Part shown: in pieces, positions 56,261-57,004 of the stretch
Position numbering within the stretch: position 1 is the stretch's first letter
Layout of the letters: each line of letters begins with the position of its first letter
Assembly (NCBI RefSeq): GCF_003334765.1
Contig: NZ_QOWT01000023.1
Source of the DNA: Escherichia coli
Lineage (GTDB): Bacteria > Pseudomonadota > Gammaproteobacteria > Enterobacterales > Enterobacteriaceae
Reading direction: 5' to 3' (one strand)
DNA: 64,000 nucleotides
Program-made: the position numbers and the translations under genes
Notes under the pieces: generated by a model
What the model was told of the DNA's origin: nothing
What the model saw: the letters and a program-made list of their open reading frames with translations, nothing else
Database searches by the model: none

Positions 56261-57004
56261 AAAAACCTCCGGCCATGCCGGAGGATATTTATTTATGTGC
56301 GTCGGGCATGGTGCGTAGCGCCGTGACTGGCGATGTTCTTCAACTCTGGTGGCTGAAGAACGACTAAAAGATGAAAGTCCTTCACTCACCCGGTGAGGGG
56401 AAGTAATAGCGGAAGGCAAGGGGGCATCGCGAGGTGAAATCTGAAGGAAGTCGGATGCAAAATGTTGGCCTGACGAACAGGAAGCGGTTAAGGCGGCGCA
56501 GCGGAGTCAGGTGGTGTAAATCACCAAAGCCCGATACTCACACGGAACGCTGTGACGTACTACCGGCAGGCATAAGCAGGAAAGTCGCGCGAATTACCCC
56601 AGAAGATCTGCAACTCTGCCAGTGTGCTACCGTCCCTGTAACAGCCTGAAGTTGGCCAGGGTAATCAAATACCGGTGTGGTGATTAGGATACAGGGTTCA
56701 GATGACATCATGGCGCAAGTCATTGAACCTACTAACGACGCCGGATATATGGTCGAAAAGCGCATCGAACAGTATTTGCATCACCCGTGGCGCCCATATA
56801 TGGTCAAGTAATATTGGCCACGGTTTTGCATCATCCATATGGTGTCAGTAGCGTGAGTATTGAGAAGATATCTGGTGAGTATGTCCATACAGTACGGGCA
56901 CGAGCCTTTAGCCGTTTGACTGTTTTGTTTGTACTCATGATCACTTTGGTGATGCCTCTAATTAGTTGAATCTGATGTATAATACGGGCTTTTGAGGTTA
57001 TCTC

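Follow-up and report, generated by a model that had tools for sequence, protein, structure and literature searches.

Remnants of a class C group II intron and an IS1111-type element between IS200 and IS1 in Escherichia coli

What occupies the 651 bp between IS200 and IS1 at positions 56297-56947 of a 64,000-nucleotide stretch of Escherichia coli DNA (contig NZ_QOWT01000023.1, assembly GCF_003334765.1)? We refer to the whole stretch of 64,000 nucleotides as the window. In the listed E. coli records no features are annotated across 56297-56947. The outline given by the initial annotation was borne out: the stretch lies between IS200 and IS1 and begins with GTGCG (56297-56301) 3' of a hairpin and a T-run. 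The quoted motifs, gatgaaagtcc and ctcacccggtgagggg, are found at about 56370-56401. The statement that neither a credible ORF nor a reverse transcriptase (RT) ORF is present agrees with our ORF scan, which detected none longer than 75 aa within 56297-56947. The description of the stretch as GC-rich holds for 56297-56632 (55%), but not for 56633-56800 (49%) and 56801-56947 (43%); the value for the window is 49.6%. Likewise, the proposal of a group II intron fragment is valid for 56297-56632 (336 of the 651 bases), but not for the remainder. Sequence comparison revealed at least three unrelated pieces in 56297-56947, and the reading of the stretch as a single object therefore fails. We consider it highly probable that the stretch is a pile-up of dead mobile-element remnants within a genomic island.

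The class C intron fragment

The leftmost piece (56297-56632, plus strand) corresponds to nt 1-336 of a group IIC intron and includes the 5' GUGCG, all of domain I (D1) and the first bases of the D2 stem. We searched all Rfam families over positions 50000-64000 of the window. RF02001 (group-II-D1D4-3) matched positions 56423-56593 over the full model (1-170) with 113.4 bits (gathering score 32, E-value 4e-23), as would be expected from the suggested 5' fragment of a class C intron. GTGCG fits the group II 5' consensus GUGYG and is aligned with the 5' ends of the introns in E. coli 550 (L002), plasmid pL37-2 (L003), E. coli M19 (L007) and BR1220 (L008). The proposed check of related genomes for an uninterrupted copy with an RT/maturase gene also succeeded, as full-length E. 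coli introns 91% identical over nt 1-336 were found. The fragment is 91.4% identical to nt 1-338 of the pL37-2 intron and 89.6% identical to E.c.I6 of CFT073 (L009), a copy that aligns with it only from nt 22. Matches with about 91% identity are spread over many E. coli plasmids and chromosomes (BLAST). No full-length intron more than 95% identical to the fragment was found by BLAST in E. coli genomes or plasmids.

The class assignment draws on the full-length relatives, the only sequences on which the RT, endonuclease-absence and size criteria for class C were examined. The complete element of pL37-2 spans 1,877 nt (about 1.88 kb) and contains RF02001, RF01998 at intron nt 333-417, a 448-aa ltrA ORF and RF00029 ending at nt 1877. 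The full-length copies of M19 and BR1220 are similar to this intron, and E.c.I6 is 90-94% identical to it. RF01998 was mapped to nt 333-417 in L007, L008 and L009 as well, and RF00029 scores 48-50 bits in the full-length relatives. Their 448-aa protein has RVT_1 and GIIM domains and is devoid of an endonuclease domain (Pfam). Its best PDB matches are the GsI-IIC RT (2e-124) and the E. rectale IIC maturase, with LtrA (IIA) and T.el4h (IIB) far behind. For E.c.I6 itself, Table S2 of Leclercq and Cordaux (2012; PMC3522654) gives class C. On the basis of these sequence relationships, we place the fragment in the E.c.I6 lineage of class C (IIC) group II introns.

RF00029 (D5-D6) has no match anywhere in the window, and the Rfam search for RF01998 (D2-D3) was negative in both the window and L002. 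Reduced to D1 and the first D2 bases, the fragment lacks the catalytic D5, a branch site and a protein, and is predicted to be unable to splice or move. The RF02001 score reaches 132-141 bits in the full-length copies, compared with 113 in the window and 95 in L002, which is truncated likewise; scores below those of the full-length copies fit neutral decay of the fragment. The z-score of its single-sequence minimum free energy fold is -0.59.

The three bases preceding the fragment, TAT at 56294-56296 (plus strand), lie between the IS200 right end and the intron, and represent the 3' end of the 5' exon, within IBS1. All intron copies have either (T/G)TAT or TTGT directly 5' of GTGCG. An AUAC at 56534-56537, located in an unpaired stretch of the RF02001 alignment, could pair with GUAU or UUAU 5' exon ends and is a candidate for EBS1.

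IS200, STnc100 and the insertion context

The insertion context is less straightforward than it seemed. The hairpin reported just upstream of GTGCG is real (8 bp, seven of them GC; CCTCCGGC-CAT-GCCGGAGG at 56266-56284, then ATATTTATTTAT), but it is the right end of IS200 and not a free-standing terminator. Consequently, the class C context recognized by the initial annotation stands insofar as a hairpin and a T-run are located upstream of the intron, but the hairpin belongs to IS200, and a likelier original target is the terminator of the STnc100 sRNA gene, now 710 bp upstream. This gene (55373-55587, plus strand; RF02076, 138.5 bits) ends in a terminator with the stem at 55554-55578 and the T-run at 55578-55583 (terminator scan). 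It is followed by IS200 (IS200C-like, 710 bp, 55584-56293, plus strand), which comprises the STnc490 5' UTR RNA (55594-55717), tnpA (55726-56184; annotated in O55:H7 USDA5905, L001) and the right-end hairpin. RF01405 matches within IS200 with 145.9 bits. Most of the IS200 copies listed align as far as 56293-56294 and a few as far as 56296-56302; for L017 the limit is 56293. IS200 copies covering at least 80% of the query are present in about 2,000 E. coli genomes.

The same locus exists without IS200. In E. coli 550 (L002) and RM10410 (L018) the STnc100 terminator is followed directly by TTTTTTTAT and the GTGCG of the intron 5' end, and window segments 55239-55583 and 56288-56892 are contiguous. 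Genomes with this block of STnc100, intron fragment and non-coding remnant number 12 with IS200 and 5 without it. Removal of 55584-56293 from the window yields exactly the L002/L018 sequence (GGGGTTTTTTTATGTGCG), which points to either a clean insertion or a precise excision. The STnc100 terminator was thus probably the original 5' exon and homing site of the intron. The relative ages of the elements can be estimated from sequence identity. Between the window IS200 and copies at unrelated loci the identity is 98.2%; for the block of intron and adjacent non-coding sequence it is about 92% (7.7% diverged) between the window and L002. Because the truncated intron is common to lineages with only about 92% identity, it must be old, and IS200, 98.2% identical to copies elsewhere, looks younger. 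We therefore think it likely that IS200 inserted after the intron, into the T-run.

The opposite order, in which IS200 came first, the intron homed to its right-end hairpin as a terminator mimic, and IS200 was later precisely excised in the 550/RM10410 lineage, is in our opinion unlikely, and yet it explains a number of observations. The right-end hairpin with its AT/T-rich tail passes the terminator scan and resembles the terE terminator used by the L008 copy, and the 12-nt spacing to the intron falls within the 8-14 nt of other copies. The STnc100-IS200 unit is widespread (about 1,700 genomes), the full-length L003 copy between a hairpin/T-run and an IS200 left end attests to a common niche, and excision of IS200/IS605-family elements is precise. 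However, the truncated intron is shared by lineages that are 7.7% diverged, while IS200 differs by no more than 1.8% from copies at unrelated loci. Moreover, the IS200-free arrangement represents a simple parental form for an insertion. We therefore retain the order in which the intron preceded IS200.

Insertion of IIC introns downstream of terminator motifs has been described (PMC1702495), and the context here is the same. A hairpin with a T-run is found 5' of the intron in the window (IS200 right end), L002 and L018 (STnc100 terminator) and L008 (a terminator after a terD-family gene). In L003 a hairpin is visible 5' of the intron, but it failed the terminator scan, and in L007 there is no clear hairpin. 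Several further observations concern the arrangement of these elements. In L003, the full-length IIC intron is placed exactly between a hairpin followed by TTTATTGT and the IS200 left end (GCACAG). IS200 copies start right after the terminator T-run at two different STnc100 terminators; the corresponding sites are 55578-55590 in the window, 6205-6225 in L002, and 4975-5005 and 6870-6890 in L003. Thus, IS200 and the E.c.I6-like intron seem to share a niche just 3' of terminator hairpins. For specialists in mobile DNA it may be of interest that both the window and L003 have the two side by side, on each occasion immediately 3' of a hairpin that ends in a T-rich tail. E. coli 550 has four copies of STnc100 (RF02076) itself within 3 kb (L002 4788-5004, 6005-6215, 7127-7346 and 7548-7750), in a prophage-like tRNA-Ile/DUF3927 context. 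A unit consisting of a DUF3927 remnant, STnc100 and IS200 is present in about 1,700 E. coli genomes with more than 98% identity to the window.

The IS1111-type remnant, the truncation joint and the right side

The second piece (56633-56800, plus strand) comes from an IS1111-type element of the IS110 family and comprises the final ~170 nt of its 3' non-coding region, which measures ~237 nt when complete. It is 92% identical to positions 3994-4169 of a K. aerogenes plasmid (L010), where the homologous region directly follows an intact transposase gene, whose product matches NF033542 ('IS110 family RNA-guided transposase') with 335 bits (cutoff 140). The window has neither a DEDD-type IS110-family transposase nor an intact copy of the element, and the first ~65 nt of the non-coding region are missing too. 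The intact element is about 1.35 kb long (L010 2821-4169; L013 1506-2854; also L014 and L015) and has a fixed target, TGTAG^TGGTCAAC.

The type of the element was deduced from its intact copies in Klebsiella, Rahnella and Xenorhabdus (L010, L013, L014, L015). They have 12-bp subterminal inverted repeats, with extensions of 7 bp on the left and 3 bp on the right, and a 3' non-coding region of about 237 nt. In L010, L013 and L014 the left end reads TGATGTG-ATGGACGCCCC and the right end GGGGCGTCCAT-ATA. Every intact copy resides in TGTAG^TGGTCAA(C/G/T), the right inverted repeat of an IS911-like IS3 element. Subterminal repeats with extensions, absence of a target duplication and a 3' non-coding region that yields a seekRNA are hallmarks of IS1111 elements (Siddiquee et al. 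2024, PMC11187229). As the ends, the extensions and the lack of target duplication match these hallmarks, we consider the element to be of the IS1111 type. A different origin, the 3' end of an IS66 element, was rejected: in L011 and L012 the module is merely fused to the C-terminus of IS66 tnpC, and the intact copies reveal its IS110-family origin.

In the intact copies, the non-coding region contains three short motifs related to the target: GTTGACC, which is reverse-complementary to the right target, TGTAGTGAT, which corresponds to the left junction, and ATATATGGTC, which corresponds to the right one. Together these motifs cover both strands of the target, bottom and top, as well as its two junctions with the element; TGTAGTG equals the left target plus the core. 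In the consensus fold, which includes a few compensatory pairs, GTTGACC and TGTAGTGAT are on opposite sides of one hairpin, and only the tip of this hairpin is missing from the Xenorhabdus copy. From these motifs and the literature we infer that the non-coding region is a seekRNA/bridge-RNA gene; no Rfam family matches this IS1111-type region. In the window, two of the guide-like motifs are mutated (GTTGGCC at 56651 and TGTGGTGAT at 56676) and one, ATATATGGTC at 56745, is intact. The right subterminal inverted repeat (56787-56797) is decayed and is followed by the 3-bp extension ATA (56798-56800), the end reading GTGGCGCCCAT-ATA. Judging by their sequences, both the intron fragment and this putative seekRNA-region remnant fit neutral decay.

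Remnants of the non-coding region are not confined to this locus. About 960 E. coli genomes and about 1,900 plasmids carry its 160-nt core (56640-56802). Solo remnants occur in the window as well as on Klebsiella/Enterobacter plasmids (about 1,000) and IncFIB plasmids (about 800). The 5' breaks of these remnants fall within about 20 nt of each other beside three unrelated neighbours, namely the group II intron (window 56626-56645), the C-terminus of IS66 tnpC (L011 3990-4005; L012 2995-3012) and an IncFIB plasmid gene (L004 ~3905-3925). Such clustering is not predicted by purely random deletion. A left-end-like repeat within the module, near its beginning, might account for the clustered breaks, but local alignment gave no better score than shuffled sequences did (103-379 of 500 scored at least as high). 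A precedent for solo non-coding modules is known in ISPpu9/ssr9 (PMC12288879). By analogy, the solo remnants might be a semi-autonomous seekRNA module that is generated or mobilized by the transposase, or kept for guiding it in trans to IS911-type ends, but we regard this as improbable. For specialists in mobile DNA, an IS1111-type element that targets the right inverted repeat of an IS911-like element and leaves widespread solo remnants of its guide-RNA region may deserve attention.

We also consider it very improbable that the stretch, or its second half, is a functional gene under selection, be it for a non-coding RNA (such as a solo seekRNA that works in trans) or for the 64-aa protein of strain 550. 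The wide distribution of the core, a few compensatory pairs and the ISPpu9/ssr9 precedent (PMC12288879) would speak for function. However, two target-matching motifs and the subterminal repeat are mutated in the window, the beginning of the non-coding region and the transposase are absent without any intact copy in the window, and the intron part scores below the live copies. As for the protein, the ORF annotated in E. coli 550 (L002) and tested at 56677-56969 of the window was rejected: its ATG is ATT in plasmid copies, the frame is broken by a frameshift in the window, and the conserved core ends in the middle of the ORF. Decayed remnants thus remain our preferred reading of both halves.

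The intron fragment and the IS1111-type remnant meet at a joint that is shared with other strains. Compared with six intron copies (L001, L002, L003, L007, L008 and L009), intron homology ends at 56632, and according to the RF01998 alignment the D2 hairpin and D3 of the full-length copies occupy the sequence from nt 333 on. The joint coincides with a 7-nt microhomology, GCTACCG (56626-56632, plus strand), which is present both in the 5' strand of intron D2 and in the non-coding region of the IS1111-type element. The intron reads GTGCTACCG followed by GCGTCG (L003), the intact IS reads ACGGCTACCG followed by TCCCTG (L010, L013, L005), and the window reads GTGCTACCGTCCCTG. A deletion between two GCTACCG copies may have created the joint, a mechanism suggested by this 7-nt identity alone. 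Truncation by IS1, as proposed initially, does not agree with the data: the break is 315 bp upstream of IS1, and E. coli 550 (L002) and RM10410 (L018) have the same joint, followed by 260 bp of the same downstream sequence (to window position 56892), with no IS1 there. The truncation therefore predates IS1.

To the right of the IS1111-type remnant is a small piece of an IS911-like IS3-family element (56801-56830, minus strand). It consists of the right inverted repeat without its 5-nt tip (TGGTCAAGTAATATTGGCCAC) and the last eight codons of orfB with the stop (CKTVANIT*). The assignment comes from BLAST (94% identity over 34 nt), tblastn and translation against the OrfB of the L010 IS3 element, and comparison of the inverted repeats in L010 and L012. 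An earlier candidate for an IS3-type inverted-repeat tip, TGAACC at 56724, was dropped once the real IS911-like right end had been located at 56801. We also rejected 56831-56947 as orfB coding sequence, as tblastn yields the last eight codons only. This filler (56831-56947) is shared with E. coli 550 only up to 56892. The sole BLAST matches for 56822-56947 are to non-coding DNA of lambdoid prophage late regions (56883-56942, 82% identity over 60 nt).

The stretch is bounded on the right by an IS1 variant (56948-57713, plus strand) that starts with GGTGATGCC and has inverted repeats GGTGATGCCTCTAATTAG and GGTAGTGCCTCCAATTAG; an IS1 family transposase is annotated there in L001. No matching direct repeats of 8-9 bp were found between its flanks (56936-56947 and 57714-57725), which suggests that IS1 was placed by an IS1-associated deletion or recombination and not by simple insertion.

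Although GTGCG 3' of a hairpin and T-run, the Rfam D1 match inside and IS1 abutting at 56948 would all be compatible with the whole ~650 bp being the 5' part (D1-D4) of a class C intron whose rest was removed by insertion of IS1, this reading is almost certainly wrong, since the homology to intron copies stops at 56632, RF01998 is missing where full-length copies have it, 56633-56830 is 92-94% identical to IS1111-type and IS911-like sequences, and the same joint exists without IS1 in L002 and L018.

Proposed history and comparison with known systems

The following order of events would account for the present arrangement. First, an E.c.I6-like IIC intron would have retrohomed just 3' of a hairpin and T-run that resembled a terminator; the most probable site is the terminator of STnc100, a prophage sRNA gene. 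In the IIC mechanism, the intron RNA together with the RT/maturase reverse-splices into DNA by means of the stem-loop and a 3-4-nt IBS1, and is copied without an endonuclease. At this locus, IBS1 would be TTAT or GTAT. Second, an IS1111-type element residing in the right inverted repeat of an IS911-like element would have lain downstream of the intron or within it. A deletion between GCTACCG copies would then have joined nt 336 of the intron to a point midway in the 3' non-coding region, with loss of D2-D6, the RT gene and the IS1111-type transposase. Third, IS200 would have separated the STnc100 terminator from the 5' end of the intron by inserting in the T-run. Finally, the right side would have been cut by IS1.

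Rfam matches to RybB, ES036 (CssrF) and naRNA4 (CssrE) at 4632-4710 (minus strand), 16386-16428 and 17408-17488, respectively, mark the left part of the window as ordinary core chromosome of E. coli. A minimal remnant of a type I-F CRISPR (42409-42496) consists of a single RF01317 repeat (GTTCACTGCCGTACAGGCAGCTTAGAAA) and a second, degenerate one, with a 32-nt spacer between them. A 763-aa ORF (39905-42196) closely precedes it, and a 405-aa ORF (42714-43931), with which the island may begin, follows it. The 812-aa ORF at 49841-52279 corresponds to a gene annotated in O55:H7 USDA5905 (L001) as a TOTE conflict system archaeo-eukaryotic primase domain protein, and is followed by IS66 and IS3 remnants. 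The 1,363-aa ORF at 59517-63608 corresponds to the EspI autotransporter (L001 annotation).

All the named components belong to known families, and truncated group II introns are already well documented in the mobile DNA of E. coli and Shigella (PMC3522654). The value of the result is therefore mainly in annotation, as an unannotated gap is now divided into named pieces. In addition, the locus illustrates how nested mobile-element wreckage builds up in a genomic island.

Each of the components can be compared with its well-described counterparts. The closest relatives of the intron fragment are E.c.I6 (E. coli CFT073, ED1a, S88 and APEC O1) and the introns of pL37-2, M19 and BR1220. They have in common GTGCG, the RF02001 block, the (T/G)TAT exon end and the site 3' of a hairpin and T-run. 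In contrast to them, the window keeps domain I only, without D2-D6 and the RT/maturase gene, and scores 113 rather than 132-141 bits. With a divergence of about 9-10%, the fragment is a copy of none of the full-length introns found here. The resemblance to B.h.I1, O.i.I1 and GsI-IIC, which target terminators and have an endonuclease-less RT, is at the family level only, the RT match being through the full-length relatives; unlike these introns, the fragment has no RT and no D5 and is predicted to be inactive. The window copy of IS200 (710 bp) is 98% identical to IS200 (IS200C) with STnc490, and displays subterminal hairpins and no target duplication. Finally, the intact relatives of the second piece (L010, L013, L014, L015) resemble the IS1111 family (ISEc11, ISKpn4, ISPst6, ISPa11) and IS110/IS621 with its bridge RNA in having a DEDD-type transposase and subterminal repeats with 7-bp and 3-bp extensions. 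They are likewise IS1111-like in their long 3' non-coding region, with short matches to both target strands, and in their single fixed target. They differ from those IS1111 elements in that the target is the right inverted repeat of an IS911-like element (TGTAG^TGGTCAAC), and of all this the window keeps the last ~170 nt of the non-coding region, with mutated motifs.
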